Positions 1 to 5,923 of a stretch of 64,000 nt of DNA are shown here, in pieces. Position numbers and translations under genes: made by a program. The stretch spans positions 224,001 through 288,000 of the forward strand of contig CAVUVW010000011.1 in the NCBI GenBank assembly GCA_963745035.1, in the 5' to 3' direction. Each line of letters begins with the position of its first letter. The first letter of the stretch is position 1. The notes beneath the pieces are model-generated. The model did not search any database. It was not told the DNA's origin and worked only from the letters and a program-made list of their open reading frames with translations. Origin of the DNA: an uncultured delta proteobacterium. GTDB taxonomy: Bacteria > Desulfobacterota > Binatia > UBA9968.

Positions 1-187
1 GGCGATGAAACAGCTCAAGGCCGACCCCGGCACAACAAGCATTCCGGTCATCGCGATCACCGCGTCGGCGATGACGCACAACAGGACGACTATGCTGGCG
101 GAGGGATTCGACGGCTACCAGACCAAGCCGATCAGTCTGAAAGATTTTATCGGGGAAATTGAAAGAGTGCTTTCAGTACACAAGTAA
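1..187 (+). CDS. Single-domain response regulator (CheY/DivK-like), 5'-truncated by the window edge
   Basis: C-terminal REC motifs LKADP..IPVIAITASAM..GFDGYQTKPI. Confidence 0.85.
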   Translation, partial: AMKQLKADPGTTSIPVIAITASAMTHNRTTMLAEGFDGYQTKPISLKDFIGEIERVLSVHK

Positions 188-793
188 ATCCGAAGCACGA
201 ATTTCGAAATCCGAAACAAATTTCCAATGCTTAAATAACAGAAAATACAAAACTGCAGCTAAAGATTCGCTAGCATAAGATACAAATGGAAACCGTCGGG
301 CTAGGCACAGCCAAAACGAAGCCACCAAGAAAATATGATCTGGAAGATCGGACCCTTGAGTTCGCCAAAAATGTGCGGACATTTGTTCGGCAAATTCCGA
401 AAACCATAGCGAATATTGAAGATTCTAAGCAAGTCGTTCGATCGTCCGGCTCCATTGGCGCAAATTACATAGAAGCGAATGAATCTATCGGCAAGAAGGA
501 CTTCCTGATGAGAATCCGAATCTGCCGCAAGGAAGCTAAGGAAACTCGTTATTGGTTGCGCTTGATTGAAATCGTCGACAATCCGACTCTGGAGAAATAT
601 AGGGTTGAGCTCATCGGGGAGGCGACCGAGTTAATGAATATATTCGGCGCTATTCTTCGTAAAAGCGAATAGATCTTTGAAATTCAGAAGGCCCCGAAGG
701 ATCTAATTCGGAGTTCGAAGTTTTGAATTTTCTTCGTTTGACATGCATTTGATTGTAATTTGATTCGGATTTCGAGATTCGGATTTCGATATT
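186..793. mobile_element. Inverted heptamer-repeat cassette (arms 186-220 and 759-793) enclosing the four-helix-bundle gene
   Basis: Left arm aaatccgaagcacgaatttcgaaatccgaaacaaa matches the reverse complement of the right arm at 27/35. Inner stem 241-254 vs 719-732 matches at 13/14. Mobility is inferred only. Confidence 0.6.
286..672 (+). CDS. Four helix bundle protein (23S rRNA intervening-sequence protein / TIGR02436-like)
   Basis: 128 aa with family motifs DLEDRTLEFA, QVVRSSGSIGANYIEA, DFLMRIRICRKEAKETRYWLRLI; AT-richer than its neighbours. Confidence 0.9.
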   Translation: METVGLGTAKTKPPRKYDLEDRTLEFAKNVRTFVRQIPKTIANIEDSKQVVRSSGSIGANYIEANESIGKKDFLMRIRICRKEAKETRYWLRLIEIVDNPTLEKYRVELIGEATELMNIFGAILRKSE

Positions 794-798
794 ATTGA

Positions 799-1914
799 AT
801 GAATACACCTCCCAAAATTCTCGTGGTCGATGACACGCCGCGGAATGTAAAACTTCTCGCGGATCTGTTGGTCGTGAAGGGCTACGGCGTCATCACCGCG
901 GATTCCGGACGCGAGGCTTTGATCAAGCTCGATGCCGAGCAGCCGGACTTGGTCTTGCTCGACGTCGTCATGCCGGAGATGAGCGGCTACGAGGTGTGCC
1001 GCAAGATCCGTGAAAACTCCGCGACGGCGATGCTGCCGGTCGTCATGGTAACGGCGCTCGATCCCGCCGAGGAGCGAGTTAAGGGGATCGATGCCGGCGC
1101 TGATGATTTTCTCAGCAAGCCGATCAATCAAACTGAACTGCTTGCCCGCGTCAAGTCGCTGCTTAGAATCAAGGAGCTGCACGATACCGTGCGAACCCAA
1201 TCCACGCAGCTTGCCGAGTGGAATCAAAGGTTAGAGGGGCGTGTTCAGGAACAAGGGGAACAGCTGGAACGTTTGGAGCGACTGAAACAATTCTTCTCGC
1301 CGCAGCTTGCGGAGATGATCGTCAACGGCGGGGCCGAGGATCCGCTGAAAACGCACAGGCGAGATCTGACCGTCGTTTACTTGGATCTGCGCGGGTTTAC
1401 CGCCTTCGCTGAGAGCGCCGAGCCGGAAGAAGTGATGGACATCTTGCATGAGTATCACGCGGCGATGGGAAAATTGATCGACGAGTACGAGGGGACCGTC
1501 GAGCACTTCGCCGGCGACGGCATGATGATTTTCTTCAACGATCCGGTGCCGGTCGATAACCCGGCGGAGCGGGCGGTGCAAATGGCGCTGGCGATGCGCG
1601 CGCAGGTGAAAGAACTGACGGTCAAATGGCGCAAGCTTGGCCACGATCTTGACTTCGGCGTCGGCATCGCCCAGGGGTACGCCACCATCGGCGCCATCGG
1701 ATTCGAAGGGCGCTGGGAGTACGGCGCGATAGGAAGCGTCCCGAATTTGGCTGCTCGTCTTTGCGGTGAGGCGAAGCCGGGAGAAATCTTGGTTCCGCAG
1801 CGCTTGCTCGGCAAGGTGGAAGACGTGGTAGAGGCTGAATCTGCCGGTGAATTAACTCTGAAAGGTTTTCATCGACCCGTGAGCGCATACAATGTTCTGC
1901 GACTCAAAGTGTAG
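799..1914 (+). CDS. Response regulator-adenylate/guanylate cyclase (REC + class III cyclase)
   Basis: REC: ILVVDD, DLVLLDVVMP, DDFLSKP. Cyclase: YLDLRGFT, GDGMM, GIAQG, NLAARL. Confidence 0.92.
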   Translation: MNTPPKILVVDDTPRNVKLLADLLVVKGYGVITADSGREALIKLDAEQPDLVLLDVVMPEMSGYEVCRKIRENSATAMLPVVMVTALDPAEERVKGIDAGADDFLSKPINQTELLARVKSLLRIKELHDTVRTQSTQLAEWNQRLEGRVQEQGEQLERLERLKQFFSPQLAEMIVNGGAEDPLKTHRRDLTVVYLDLRGFTAFAESAEPEEVMDILHEYHAAMGKLIDEYEGTVEHFAGDGMMIFFNDPVPVDNPAERAVQMALAMRAQVKELTVKWRKLGHDLDFGVGIAQGYATIGAIGFEGRWEYGAIGSVPNLAARLCGEAKPGEILVPQRLLGKVEDVVEAESAGELTLKGFHRPVSAYNVLRLKV

Positions 1915-1917
1915 CAA

Positions 1918-2077
1918 AAAGTCGAAGCACGAAATCCGAAATCCGAAACAAATTCGAATGGTCAAAAAAAATGGAATGTTCCAAACGGTGCTGATTTCTG
2001 ATTCCGCGTTTGGAATTTGCCCGCGTTTTGGATTTGTCTGTCTTTGTTTCGGATTTCGAAATTCGAATTTCGGGTTT
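1918..2077. repeat. Gene-less copy of the heptamer (nnnCGAA) inverted-repeat element
   Basis: Arms aaagtcgaagcacgaaatccgaaatccgaaacaaa and tttgtttcggatttcgaaattcgaatttcgggttt; inner stem ttccaaacg/cgtttggaa. Confidence 0.85.
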
Positions 2078-2096
2078 TGAGGTAGTAGGAGATGCC

Positions 2097-2549
2097 ATGC
2101 GAGATCAGGCTACGGTTCTTGAGGCAGGTCAGGGCACGGTATTTTCCGCGCGCGGCAGCATGATGTTCTTCAAAGCCACAAGGTCGAGCACCAACGGTGC
2201 GTTTTCCCTGATGGAGCGCACGCTGCCTCCGGGAGGCAGAAAGCCGCCGCCGCATATTCATACGAACTGCGAGGAGGCATTCTACGTGCTCGACGGCGAG
2301 GTGGAGTTTTCCCTGGGAGAAACGACAACCATCGGACGCCCTGACACATTCGTGCTGGTGCCGGGCGGCGTCTCTCATACGTTCGGTAACGCCGGTGCGA
2401 CACAGGCGCGGCTGCTGGTCATGCACGCGCCGGCGATGGATGCCTACTTTGAAGAGCTTCAGACACTGTGGGCGCGAGAGGTTCCGCCTAGTCGTGAAGA
2501 TGAGTTGGAATTGATGCGCCGGCACGGCATGGAGCCGGTAGAACGATAG
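2097..2549 (+). CDS. Cupin domain protein
   Basis: PPPHIHTNCEEAFYVLDG...VPGGVSHTF cupin motifs. ATG at 2097 follows aggag; the ORF-track N-terminal extension is translated repeat. Confidence 0.88.
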   Translation: MRDQATVLEAGQGTVFSARGSMMFFKATRSSTNGAFSLMERTLPPGGRKPPPHIHTNCEEAFYVLDGEVEFSLGETTTIGRPDTFVLVPGGVSHTFGNAGATQARLLVMHAPAMDAYFEELQTLWAREVPPSREDELELMRRHGMEPVER

Positions 2550-2706
2550 TCTGCAGATCCATTTACTCCGATTCGCCCAAGTCTATCCATTTACTCTGCT
2601 AGAAATTGCCACCCGTTCAATAAAGAGCACGCCGAGTAGGCGCGGTTGGTCTTCACCGCACATCGGTGTTATTTAACAATTCGAAGTTCGTATCGAGGAG
2701 ACGACA

Positions 2707-3753
2707 ATGAATGTGCTCTTGATGGGTTTACTCGCTCTTTTCGCATGGACGGCATCCACTTCGGCGCAGGCCGGGAAGCCGGTGTCGATGGCCGAGCTCG
2801 CGGCCTATAACAAACCGGACCGGGAAAAAGTGCTCTACGAAGGCGCGAAAAAAGAAGGCCGGTTGATGTGGTACACCTCGCTTACCGGCGGGCCGAACAG
2901 CGATGCGCCCAAGGTGTTCGAGGCGAAGTACCCGGGCCTGAAGCTCGAAGTTTACCGCGGTGACAGCGACGCGATCATTCAGCGAGTGCTGCAAGAGGCT
3001 CAAGCGAAGCGCTTCCTCGTCGACGTGATCGAAACCACGTTCCCCGTGCTCAAGGTGATGCAGGAGTACAAGCTGCTGGCGCCGTACTTTTCGCCGCACC
3101 TGGCGCAGTATCCGGACGAGGCAAAGGAAAAAGCCGAAAAAGAGTTGGTCTATTGGGCGACCGATCGCGAGTCGTATATCGGTCTCGCGTATAATACAAA
3201 TTCCGTCCAGGGAAACGCAGTGCCGAAGGGCTTCGAAGATCTGCTCAAACCCGAGCTGCGCGGCAAGATCGGCTTTGCCACGACGGACACCGGCGCGCGC
3301 GTCATCGGCGCAATGATTGCGAGCAAAGGCGCCGAGTTCGTGCAGAAACTGAAAGCGCAGCAGATCACGCTGCATTCGGTATCCGGACGAGCGATTCTCG
3401 ACATGGTGATTTCCGGCGAGCTGGGTGTGTCGCCGACGGTTTTTCTCAGTCATTCAAGAGTATCGATTGCCAAAGGAGCGCCGATCAAGTGGGTGCCGAT
3501 GGAATTCGTGCCGACCAACGCCGGCGGCGTGGCCGTGCCTGCCAATGCGCCGCGCCCGCACGCGGGACTGCTATTCAGCGATTTTCTGCTCAGCCCGGAA
3601 GGACAGAAATTCCTCGGCAAGTACGGCCTGGACAGCGCGATGAACAAGCCGAGTTTCCAGCGCTACTACGCCGAAGCGGGAATGACCGCGGCGCAGTACG
3701 AGAAAGAAAACGAGAAATGGGAGAAGCTGCTCCGGGAAATCGGCAGGAAGTAG
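2707..3753 (+). CDS. ABC transporter substrate-binding protein (Fe3+/thiamine/polyamine-like, SBP_bac_6/8)
   Basis: Signal peptide; GAKKEG.L.WYTS, YNT..V...P..FEDLL.P, APRPHA..LF.DFLLSPEGQ. Confidence 0.85.
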   Translation: MNVLLMGLLALFAWTASTSAQAGKPVSMAELAAYNKPDREKVLYEGAKKEGRLMWYTSLTGGPNSDAPKVFEAKYPGLKLEVYRGDSDAIIQRVLQEAQAKRFLVDVIETTFPVLKVMQEYKLLAPYFSPHLAQYPDEAKEKAEKELVYWATDRESYIGLAYNTNSVQGNAVPKGFEDLLKPELRGKIGFATTDTGARVIGAMIASKGAEFVQKLKAQQITLHSVSGRAILDMVISGELGVSPTVFLSHSRVSIAKGAPIKWVPMEFVPTNAGGVAVPANAPRPHAGLLFSDFLLSPEGQKFLGKYGLDSAMNKPSFQRYYAEAGMTAAQYEKENEKWEKLLREIGRK

Positions 3754-3779
3754 AAGCGAGGAACTTCTCGGATTTATCG

Positions 3780-3803
3780 CGCAAAGGCGCAAAGACGCGA
3801 AGG
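3780..3803 (+). repeat. 8-bp period tandem repeat CGCAAAGG/CGCAAAGA/CGCGAAGG
   Basis: Read directly from the sequence; adjacent to the element at 3814. Confidence 0.55.
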
Positions 3804-3813
3804 TAGGAGAATC

Positions 3814-3973
3814 AAATTCGAAGCACGAAATTCGAAATCCGAAACAAATCCGAATGACCGAAAACCAGAAATCTGAAACGAGTCTGAAATCGGATTTATT
3901 TTGAAAATTTCTTCCGATTTTGACTTATTGCTTCCAACTTTGTTTCGGATTTCGATATTCGGATTTCGGATTT
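3814..3973. repeat. Second gene-less copy of the heptamer inverted-repeat element
   Basis: Arms aaattcgaagcacgaaattcgaaatccgaaacaaa and tttgtttcggatttcgatattcggatttcggattt; inner stem aaatcgga/tccgattt. Confidence 0.85.
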
Positions 3974-3983
3974 ATGTTTAAAG

Positions 3984-4695
3984 ATGGTTCGTCCGCGCTT
4001 TGCTTCGACCGTCGTACTGCTTCGGCCCGATGACGAACAGCGGCTTCGAGGTTCTCTTGACGCGCCGGCCCGAAGAGATGCGCTTTCTCGGCGGCTTTTA
4101 CGTCTTTCCGGGCGGCACCGTTCACACAACGGACTATTCGCCAAAAATCATCGAGCGCTGCCGCGGCATTTCGGGTGCGCAGGCGCAAAAGATTCTTGGC
4201 GGCCACCATGAGGCGGATGAAGCGGTCGGGCACTGGGTGGCGGTTGTGCGCGAGTTGTTCGAGGAAGTCGGCGTGTTGCTCTGCGTCAACGAGAAGGGTG
4301 AAGCGATTCAATTCAACAATCCTACGGAGAACCGGCGCATCGAGCTTGCGCGCCGGGCGATCGTTGCGGGAGAGGTCGATTTCGGCGACTTTCTGCAGTC
4401 GGAAAATTTATTCTGCGATCTCACCAAGACGAAGTACTTCGACCATTGGGTGACGCCCGAGATTTATTCCATGCGCTTCGACACTCGCTTCTATGTTGCG
4501 GTCCTGCCGGCCGCCCAAAGTGCGCTCACTCACTCAGAGGAGGTGTCGCATAGCTTGTGGATCAAAGCCGGCACAGCGCTCGCACGAATGGACCGTCGAG
4601 ATTTTCCGATCCTACCGCCAACCACAACGGTCTTGCAGCGCCTTTCTCGTATTTCGACCTGGGATCATCTGCGGACCGATTTCGAGCTACCTTAG
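3984..4695 (+). CDS. NUDIX hydrolase (Nudt19-like); frameshift near 4030
   Basis: MVRPRFASTVVLLR joins EVLLTRR..MRFLGGFYVFPGG, Nudix box VRELFEEVG, HWVTP..RFDTRFY. Confidence 0.82.
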
Positions 4696-4794
4696 ACGGC
4701 GTGTTAAGTGTGTGTTCTTGCCCTTGATAGTTCATTGGTAAGTGTTAAAAGGGTGTCGAGCTGGAACCATCAACTAATCTAAAGGAGGAACATC

Positions 4795-5298
4795 ATGGCT
4801 ACAGTAAAATTCAAGGATGCTACCTTGACGCTTTTGGGCAACGAAGTGAAGGCGGGTCAAGGCGCGCCCGACTTCAAGGTGCAGAAGAGCGCTGACATGA
4901 GTGACTACACTTTGGCGAGCGGGGCAGGCAAGACTCGCATCATCGCCACCGTGCCGTCGCTTGACACACCGGTCTGCGATCTGGAGGCAAAAAGGTTTAA
5001 CGAGGAAGCGAGCAAGCTGCCCAACGTCGAAGTCGTTGTCGTCAGCATGGATTTGCCGTTTGCGCAAAAGCGCTGGTGCGGTGCCGCCAATGCCGACAAA
5101 GTCATCACGGCAAGCGATCATCGCGAAGGTTCCTTCGGCAAGAATTACGGCCTGCTGATTTCCGGCGGTCCGCTCGATCGCGTGCTCGCGCGCGCGGTTT
5201 TCGTCGTCGGGCCGGACAACAAGCTCAAACACGTCGAATATGTCCCCACCATCGGCGAGCATCCCAATTACGACGCCGCCCTCGCCGCGGCGAAATAG
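4795..5298 (+). CDS. tpx: Thiol peroxidase (Tpx)
   Basis: VPSLDTPVC (peroxidatic Cys), SMDLPFAQKRWC (resolving Cys), LARAVFV, EHPNYDAA; RBS aggagg. Confidence 0.95.
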   Translation: MATVKFKDATLTLLGNEVKAGQGAPDFKVQKSADMSDYTLASGAGKTRIIATVPSLDTPVCDLEAKRFNEEASKLPNVEVVVVSMDLPFAQKRWCGAANADKVITASDHREGSFGKNYGLLISGGPLDRVLARAVFVVGPDNKLKHVEYVPTIGEHPNYDAALAAAK

Positions 5299-5452: not shown

Positions 5453-5923
5453 ATGATTGAAGTCGGCAAGGAAGCGCCGGATTTCGAATTAGTCAGTCAT
5501 TTGGGCGGAACCAAGTTCACGTTGGGCCAGTTCAAGAACAAGAAAAACGTCATGCTGGTGTTCTATCCGCTGGATTGGACACCCACTTGAACCCGCGAGA
5601 TTCCGGCTCTGGAAGCTCTCAAGGAAGAGTTCAAAGCCTGTGACACCCAAGTTATGGGTGTGAGCATCGATAGCAGATTCTCTCACGATAATTGGGCGAA
5701 ATCGTGCGGCGGGATTTCTTTCCCCCTACTGCAGGATTTTCATCCCAAGGGGGAGATGGCGAAGAAATATGGCGTTTTTCTAGAGGATAAAGGGATTACG
5801 GACCGGGCGACGGTAATCATTGATAAGCAGGGAATCGTTCGCTACTCGAAATCGGTAACGCCCGCCGGTGAACGCAACCCCAAAGAGCTGTTGGCCGAGG
5901 CGCAAAAAATCAACAACGGATAA
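5453..5923 (+). CDS. Selenocysteine-containing peroxiredoxin (AhpC/TSA, AhpE-like), 156 aa, Sec46 encoded by in-frame TGA 5588-5590
   Basis: RBS gaggag + ATG 5453; MIEVGKEAPDFEL...VMLVFYPLDWTPT-TGA-TREIP continues in frame into ORF 5654-5923 (GVSIDS, RATVIIDKQGIVR). The TGA occupies the peroxidatic Cys position of PxxxTxxC. Confidence 0.9.
5597..5620 (+). promoter_or_regulatory. Putative bacterial SECIS hairpin
   Basis: GAGA-TTCCG-[GCTC]-TGGAA-GC-TCTC stem-loop; G-initiated apical loop starts about 16 nt after the UGA. Confidence 0.6.

Follow-up and report, generated by a model that had tools for sequence, protein, structure and literature searches.

The window considered here is a 64,000-nucleotide stretch (G000:C11:224001-288000) of the 7.43-Mb genome of an uncultured delta proteobacterium, assembled in 28 contigs. 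At its beginning lie three related elements on the + strand: a gene-bearing hairpin cassette whose layout resembles that of the intervening sequences (IVSs) of 23S rRNA (185..797), and two gene-less elements, element 2 (1914..2079) and element 3 (3812..3976). The unit common to them is an imperfect palindrome with arms of four to five tandem CGAAATC-like heptamers, and it sits just past the stop codon of a host gene read in the same direction. In its full form, an open reading frame (ORF) for a four-helix-bundle (4HB) protein fills the loop, with its start in the left stem strand, 6 nt past the innermost heptamer. We consider that elements 2 and 3 are probably ORF-less derivatives of a 4HB hairpin cassette, which would itself be a non-rRNA counterpart of the S23p-encoding IVS of 23S rRNA.

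Three elements with common arms

The cassette follows immediately on the gene upstream, whose stop codon is at 185-187, and both of its ends (185-256 and 678-794) are matched by an element hidden Markov model (HMM) built from 10 copies of the family. Its left arm (188..220) consists of tandem heptamers ending in the 16-base arm core CGAAATCCGAAACAAA, exact at 205-220, with the 11-mer CGAAGCACGAA at 191-201. The right arm (759..795) consists of inverted heptamers, carries the core on the - strand with one mismatch (759-774), and pairs with the left arm in the predicted fold. Between the arms is the 4HB gene (286..672, + strand; 128 aa). Elements 2 and 3 are imperfect palindromes of about 165 bp with the same arms. 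Element 2 has its left arm at 1923-1952, an ATG at 1958-1960 and its right arm at 2043-2072 (nhmmer, 136 bits), and element 3 has the corresponding features at 3819-3848, 3854-3856 and 3939-3968 (130 bits); the cores are exact in both. Exact copies of CGAAATCCGAAACAAA therefore start at 205, 1937 and 3833 on the + strand and at 2043 and 3939 on the - strand, in addition to the one-mismatch copy at 759. When up to three mismatches are allowed, the core has 7 matches against 1.16 expected, a number reached in none of 100 shuffles. CGAAGCACGAA occurs three times (191, 1923 and 3819), on the + strand and in a left arm every time; since its count alone is within chance (2.85 expected at up to one mismatch), it is the placement in the left arm that counts.

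All three elements lie downstream of + strand genes, whose stop codons are at 185-187, 1912-1914 and 3751-3753, and all three have AATG after the left arm (ATG at 227-229, 1958-1960 and 3854-3856). These features, like the shared arms and the restriction of CGAAGCACGAA to the left arm, had been described in the original prediction and were borne out for each element. Elements 2 and 3 are 81% identical overall, with near-identical arms and diverged interiors. Their equal length had been taken as a sign of selection, and the two spans (1923-2072 and 3819-3968) do measure 150 bp each, but this does not extend to the family: the core-to-core span of 13 clean gene-less pairs in the source genome varies from 105 to 130 bp, so length is not fixed. 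The 122-bp core-to-core span occurs in only four of these pairs, namely the two window elements and two others about 10 kb upstream, all four in a 13-kb part of one contig.

The gene between the cassette and element 2 encodes a response regulator fused to an adenylate/guanylate cyclase (799..1914, + strand; PF00072, PF00211). Element 3 is in the 3' intergenic space of a gene for an extracellular solute-binding protein (2707..3753, + strand; PF13531, PF13343, PF01547). Other genes neighboring the three elements encode a cupin and a NUDIX protein.

A four-helix-bundle gene between matching arms

The ORF at 286-672 matches TIGR02436 (E = 1.8e-19, 69.9 bits; cut-off 24) and PF05635, the 23S rRNA intervening-sequence protein or 'S23p' family (51 bits; cut-off 33.8). 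The nearest solved structure is PDB 2rld (E = 3e-13), an entry with five chains. A scan of metagenomes with the window protein yielded 458 relatives, and we analyzed the flanks of the best 80 of these 458 (61-98% identical), 70 of which have at least 150 nt on both sides. CGAAATC-type arms are present on both sides in 64 of the 70 and on one side in the remaining 6, and no homologue is without them. The anticipated association between the arms and four-helix-bundle genes is thus upheld. An in-frame stop interrupts the matched part in 4 of the 80 homologues, twice within the conserved region; the others are open. In a metagenome-assembled genome (MAG) of the Gemmataceae, a PF05635 ORF encoding a protein 65% identical to that of the window lies exactly between the arms. 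This cassette came from the 30 partial loci of the exact-match scan described below, in which PF05635 was found in 1 of 108 ORFs.

Third codon positions of the ORF are saturated (36% identity), whereas inner arm positions are mostly at least 90% conserved, a value inflated by the choice of arms through matches with up to two mismatches; the 64 of 70 homologues with arms on both sides provide the unbiased figure. Conserved arms beside saturated third positions indicate that the sequence of the arms is constrained, and not just their capacity to pair.

Other 4HB paralogues in the source genome are at most 34% identical to the window protein over its full length. For 7 of the 13 PF05635 genes in this genome, the score of flanking inverted repeats exceeds the maximum (29) among 286 control ORFs, and we judged 2 further genes to be flanked by eye, their starts having been set too far upstream in the scoring. 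Every gene with arms has a 7-8-mer unit of its own, and gene-less hairpin loci exist for most of these units as well. A second 4HB subfamily, represented by five homologues (51-70% identical) from other families of the phylum, is likewise flanked by 7-8-mer repeats in all five cases as judged by eye; the unit varies among them, and one set of repeats looks direct rather than inverted. Searches for vehicles or known defense functions returned little: blastn of the cassette against plasmids gave no match, tblastn of the 4HB protein against phages gave just two weak matches (34-41% identity), and none of the PADLOC defense models matched.

Several other arm types are abundant in the source genome. 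The TTGAACG-type has 206 forward and 177 reverse matches against 8 for the reversed control, and the CACGAnC type 104 and 106 against 32. The TTTCGAT-type forms 13 hairpin loci, and the GGATAAA, GGATAAT, GGCAnTA and GCAAAGAC types form 5-7 each. On another contig, a 24-kb run of small ORFs, mostly on the minus strand (G000:C13:1773800-1797000; L296, L297), contains at least 8 PF05635 matches together with three ParE/Phd pairs, an MqsA-like protein, DUF4258, a Zeta toxin, ORF6N and a fragment of a group II intron maturase, the ORFs being divided by other heptamer or octamer arrays and by a recurring palindrome. Upstream of the run are PRTase-CE+AAA, an SF1 helicase, a DNA methylase, RadC, an IS3 integrase-core gene and a Y1 transposase. 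The run resembles a cassette array or a defense/toxin-antitoxin island, with no integrase among the scanned ORFs.

Gene-less copies retain a start codon

The distance from GAAACAA to the first in-frame ATG, which falls inside the left stem strand, is exactly 6 nt in 48 of the 70 cassettes, and most cassettes have about 30 nt between the stop codon of the ORF and the right arm. The AATG of the window elements can therefore be recognized as a leftover start codon. In the window cassette this canonical start (ATG at 227-229) is closed by a TAA after three codons (227..238), and the ORF restarts at 286. Among 68 gene-less copies, 17 have an ATG at the 6-nt offset, versus 4 on the opposite arm. It follows from the leftover start codon that the empty elements are cassettes in which all of the ORF after its first codons, up to the post-stop flank, is missing. 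Elements 2 and 3 are ORF-less derivatives of this kind, in which the arms persist together with the leftover ATG and the flank beyond the stop codon. That the empty elements belong to the family of the gene-bearing cassette, as had been suggested, is supported by the arms, the inner flanks and this codon together.

A dispersed family of old residents

A genome-wide search for the arms revealed the dispersed family that had been expected. With up to one mismatch, the arm core has 32 matches in the source genome and none for the reversed control. The element HMM identifies 25 regions, which include 18 full-length gene-less copies (at least 135 bp), 4 partial loci and the cassette, and we put the family at about 23 loci. 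Identity between copies does not exceed 81%, with a median of 70%; the copies are old residents rather than recent insertions. None of the five loci of Y1 transposases (PF01797), the one transposase family searched for, has arms within 1.5 kb, in line with the predicted lack of a transposase. Neither the ends of 13 copies nor the comparison of occupied with empty sites revealed a target-site duplication, although one of 2-3 bp could be hidden there, as the ends belong to the palindrome and are rich in A on one side and in T on the other. The 23S rRNA gene is on a different contig (G000:C14:326867-329870), and at 3004 nt, against 2925 model positions, it is without a large insert.

Among 41 related genomes, arms are present in 28, including 22 of 24 members of the genus and 5 of 5 genomes of a second family, and they are absent from all 11 genomes of a third. 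Five members of the genus encode the cognate 4HB protein, with one gene per genome and at the same syntenic site every time, upstream of the response-regulator/cyclase gene. In a tree of 85 proteins built by a quick method, these five sequences fall into an 11-row clade that includes the Gemmataceae sequence (Shimodaira-Hasegawa-like approximate likelihood ratio test, SH-aLRT, 95), an arrangement based on only 119 columns that permits no conclusion about transfer.

Occupancy of individual sites varies among species. Site 3 contains a CGAAATC-type element in G000, G043, G012, G015 and G020, and short hairpins of other heptamers in G045, G014, G013, G008 and G005 (unpublished). G043 has element 3 at the same site, its arms conserved and its interior diverged. 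In run X3, one DNA contig with flanks about 98% identical shows 88 other letters instead of positions 3753-3983. Site 2 is, depending on the relative, occupied in either orientation, truncated or empty. In several species, a short GCGCAAAGACGC-like repeat stands in front of the CGAAATC-type element at site 3 (window positions 3760-3810; relatives L189, L196, L199); elsewhere in the genome this repeat forms its own inverted pairs, at 7 hairpin loci. Small GC-rich palindromic insertions were seen within heptamer arms at L109, L182 (G003), L183 (G009), L085, L087 and L123, and they look like a smaller second repeat nested in the first.

Beyond these relatives, an exact-match scan of species-representative genomes returned at least 127 stretches. 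By our own estimate, a random 16-mer would have a few hundred chance matches in 596 Gb, so single exact matches mean little. We therefore rely on the whole-element HMM, which matched 73 of the 80 stretches checked, 50 of them over at least 140 of its 173 positions. The MAGs from which the checked stretches derive are labeled Planctomycetota, Desulfobacterota or "delta proteobacterium", Aminicenantes, Verrucomicrobia, Patescibacteria and others. In an alignment of 58 copies, arm columns are at least 90% identical and the interiors barely align.

Predicted folding and orientation

Elements 2 and 3 are each predicted to fold into a long interrupted hairpin (-53.9 kcal/mol, z = -3.7, and -54.7 kcal/mol, z = -5.8, respectively), and for neither was any of 200 shuffles equally stable. 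The minimum-free-energy RNA fold of the cassette (183-800) pairs its ends around the ORF (-182.5 kcal/mol, z = -3.07). The inner stems previously proposed for elements 2 and 3 are present in both folds, but the interiors are not unusually stable (z = -0.23, with 40 of 100 shuffles as stable, and z = -1.57, with 9 of 100) when their halves are shuffled separately so that the A-rich left and T-rich right composition is preserved; selection on the inner stems is thus unsupported. Over the family, interiors have a mean z of -1.3, and 18 of 61 fall below -2. The covariation that had been expected did not appear either. For the 58 of 68 elements that remained after 10 with large insertions or truncations were dropped, RNAalifold gave 15 pairs, 1 of which showed a compensatory change (covariation term 0.14), a result made uninformative by the near-invariance of the arms and the poor alignment of the interiors. 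The fold of the sense orientation is the better one in 15 of 18 copies in the source genome, and in 41 versus 27 over all 68.

At 60 of 65 loci, the 4HB ORF runs in the direction of the ORF upstream of it, which fits a promoter-less ORF that is read through at the end of a transcription unit; downstream ORFs are co-directional in 34 cases and opposed in 19. Gene-less copies in the source genome are flanked by genes in the arrangements ++ (12), -- (3), +- (2) and -+ (1). The constant orientation claimed in the original prediction describes the three window elements correctly, but across phyla the gene-less copies show no bias (see below).

Small shares of the stretch are present in five RNA runs. 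The runs that we compared (two RNA and two DNA) consist of assembled contigs dominated by other arm copies; bins 281-700 are without cover in them, which carries no evidential weight.

Apart from the elements, the raw sequence and ORF list of the window contain a peroxiredoxin-like frame (5453-5923) with an apparent in-frame TGA at about 5589, where such proteins usually have Cys or Sec.

A transcribed hairpin and its alternatives

If the elements are non-rRNA counterparts of IVSs, the unit would have no promoter of its own and would be transcribed by read-through from the upstream gene. Its RNA could then fold into a long interrupted stem and, by analogy with rRNA IVSs, be cut by an RNase III-type enzyme. 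This mechanism is suggested by the rRNA precedent and by the orientation bias of the ORF. In the full form, cutting would release the 4HB message, while in the empty elements it would only leave a processed or stabilized 3' end. A partner with sequence specificity may recognize the arm sequence, the pentamer of the cognate 4HB protein being the most likely candidate.

A number of our results count against such a mechanism. In 69 cassettes for which the ORF identifies the sense strand, G.U pairs (250) are not in excess over A.C mismatches (258), so that selection on pairing at the RNA level is not demonstrable. Over the whole window no Rfam family reaches its gathering score, and an E-value search of positions 100-4100 recovered only plant and animal microRNA hairpin models at 20-24 bits against thresholds of 100-211, which are spurious. 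A scan for terminators and promoters gave no match of either kind at the elements, the 7 terminator-like sites in 1-4800 all lying outside them, and the contigs of the runs show no RNA ends or strand. Gene-less copies across phyla are flanked by ++ (11), -- (14), +- (13) and -+ (7) gene pairs and thus have no orientation bias. The cognate gene occurs in only 5 of the 41 relatives versus 28 with arms, meaning that arms persist without it. Finally, the flanking genes in our counts are the longest stop-free frames, called without a gene finder. An intrinsic terminator, in the sense of a short GC-rich stem followed by a T-run, was also considered and was rejected, there being no such site at the elements.

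The most serious alternative, which we regard as possible but doubtful, is that the gene-less hairpins represent mobile DNA of a non-autonomous kind, which the cognate 4HB protein copies or maintains in trans. The model for this is REPIN/RAYT, said to have been described by Bertels and Rainey in 2011 as doublets of REP (repetitive extragenic palindromic) sequences with a REP-associated tyrosine transposase. Here the 4HB protein would recognize its own heptamer arms and would be encoded by a single-copy, vertically inherited, arm-flanked gene. The single cognate gene at a constant syntenic site in five genus members agrees with this, as does the clustering of copies near the cassette: contig C11, which is 327 kb long, has 8 loci where 1.1 would be expected, and the 1.97-Mb contig C13 has none. 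Arm types of 4HB genes in the source genome mostly have gene-less hairpin loci too, and by eye the loops within a genome resemble each other, suggesting that the gene-less form was itself amplified. In a sample of 300 genomes from the phylum, 14 have the gene, and each of the four highest arm counts (125, 79, 54 and 53) belongs to one of them. Ten or more arm matches were found in 5 of the 14 gene-bearing and 12 of the 286 gene-free genomes (odds ratio 12.7, Fisher p = 4.6e-4, uncorrected for relatedness), a hint of dependence that is confounded by relatedness and by the two arms that the gene itself brings. Against mobilization by the 4HB protein, we know of no nuclease or transposase activity in proteins of this type. 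No target-site duplication was recognized at the ends, the absence of any pair of copies above 81% identity indicates that there has been no recent burst, and the gene is missing from arm-rich genomes of the genus such as G009 (95 matches), albeit in a fragmented assembly of 670 contigs.

We think it unlikely that the elements primarily serve the host in 3' untranslated regions, as terminators, mRNA-stabilizing hairpins or processing sites, with the 4HB gene an occasional passenger. Such a role would account for their location 2-60 nt past stop codons, for the share of convergent gene pairs (13 of the 45 loci across phyla for which a gene was called on either side), for the conservation of arms in orthologous copies across species, and for the better folding of the sense orientation in the source genome. 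It is at odds with the absence of a terminator-like hairpin with a T-run, the lack of a wobble bias and the unbiased orientation across phyla. Nor does it explain why a single orthologous site bears different hairpin types, or none, depending on the species, and the strict pairing between arm type and 4HB subfamily would be unexpected for a host element.

Least likely of all is that the elements act as double-stranded DNA, either as heptamer iterons for a DNA-binding factor or as cruciform palindromes, with the RNA hairpin incidental: conservation of sequence rather than of pairing alone, the symmetry of G.U and A.C mismatches and the immaterial orientation of gene-less copies would suit such sites, but the 4HB protein is the sole candidate factor, the bias of 60 in 65 in ORF orientation points to transcription, and the precedent, the rRNA IVS as presented in the available text of the Coxiella study, acts as RNA (PMC4990558).

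Relation to known systems

The origin, mobility and purpose of rRNA IVSs and of the S23p/4HB family have been in question since the early 1990s, and several classes of element invite comparison with those of the window. Miniature inverted-repeat transposable elements, too, are small, with inverted ends, multiple dispersed copies and a longer gene-bearing relative. The window elements differ in being palindromic throughout rather than just at their ends and in lacking a visible target-site duplication, and their longer relative encodes a 4HB protein, the only gene found between the ends. REPIN/RAYT systems reportedly share with them hairpins of 100-170 bp in intergenic 3' regions, a single-copy, repeat-flanked and vertically inherited cognate gene, and a higher copy number where the gene is present. 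In the window family, however, the flanked gene encodes a 4HB protein and not an HUH/Y1 transposase, there is no population of identical master copies, and the arms are tandem heptamers instead of one short GC-rich palindrome.

Diversity-generating retroelements have their targets at the 3' ends of genes, beside a hairpin. Their accessory protein Avd shares its fold and family neighborhood with the window protein, PF05635 being described as similar to Avd in the part of the source available to us (PMC10053308). Unlike these systems, the cassette has no reverse transcriptase, template repeat or variable repeat beside it in the window.

Heptamer repeats have also been reported from Xanthomonas (GGGAATC), with 70-75 inverted pairs per genome, and from Nostoc and Calothrix, where they are known as short tandemly repeated repetitive (STRR) sequences (PMC4692102). 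Like the window elements, they are intergenic and often form convergent inverted pairs capable of folding into stem-loops; the accessible text of that paper discusses G-rich heptamers as quadruplex-forming, states that detailed literature on heptamer repeats is absent, and makes no mention of S23p or four-helix-bundle proteins (PMC4692102). It is our conjecture that these repeats too are linked to 4HB genes. Within the literature searched, which did not extend to subscription journals and supplements, we found no paper tying 4HB/S23p genes to dispersed heptamer hairpins outside rRNA.

A broader proposal, one to which we give little credence at present, is that S23p/Avd-family 4HB genes across bacteria are cargo of one unrecognized class of hairpin elements. 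Protein subfamilies may have co-evolved with their own heptamer arms, a pentamer reading about five heptamers, and the 4HB protein may act with a host enzyme or a reverse transcriptase (compare Avd) to copy hairpins into the loops of other hairpins, with the 3' ends of genes and rRNA as targets. Ribosomal IVSs, the heptamer hairpins of Xanthomonas and cyanobacteria, and gene-less elements like those described here may then be products of one mechanism. At a more practical level, our finding offers an explanation for over-abundant heptamer repeats in bacterial genomes, a class of repeat that genome annotation currently leaves blank.

The closest likeness is to the S23p-encoding IVSs in the 23S rRNA of Coxiella, Leptospira and others. 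As far as the available text of the Coxiella study extends, the IVS of that organism has a 28-bp terminal stem in which RNase III cuts, an S23p ORF in the loop, and tandem heptamers (GACAGAT) before an S23p start with a poor ribosome-binding site, and the discussion credits Ralph and McClelland with proposing a mobility function for the ORF (PMC4990558). The window family shares terminal inverted repeats that form a long stem, a PF05635 ORF in the loop that reads in the sense of the host transcript, a start preceded by tandem heptamers, the lack of an obvious ribosome-binding site, and the existence of ORF-less forms. The original prediction had held a cargo-bearing and an empty form without a transposase to be no standard class of element. 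For the gene-bearing form this needs correction, as its architecture is that of an S23p-type IVS; the non-rRNA version and its gene-less derivatives do appear to be undescribed. The differences are that the window elements lie between protein-coding genes, rather than in helix 25 or 45 of 23S rRNA, that they belong to a multi-copy family of about 23 loci, and that cutting by RNase III is proposed here by analogy only. Whether heptamers are bound by the protein, stems cut by RNase III, and hairpins moved in a protein-dependent manner can now be tested. To what is known of rRNA IVSs, the locus adds an IVS architecture outside rRNA, in many copies and many phyla, with strict pairing between arms and protein subfamily, gene-less derivatives, and a copy number that correlates with the presence of the gene.

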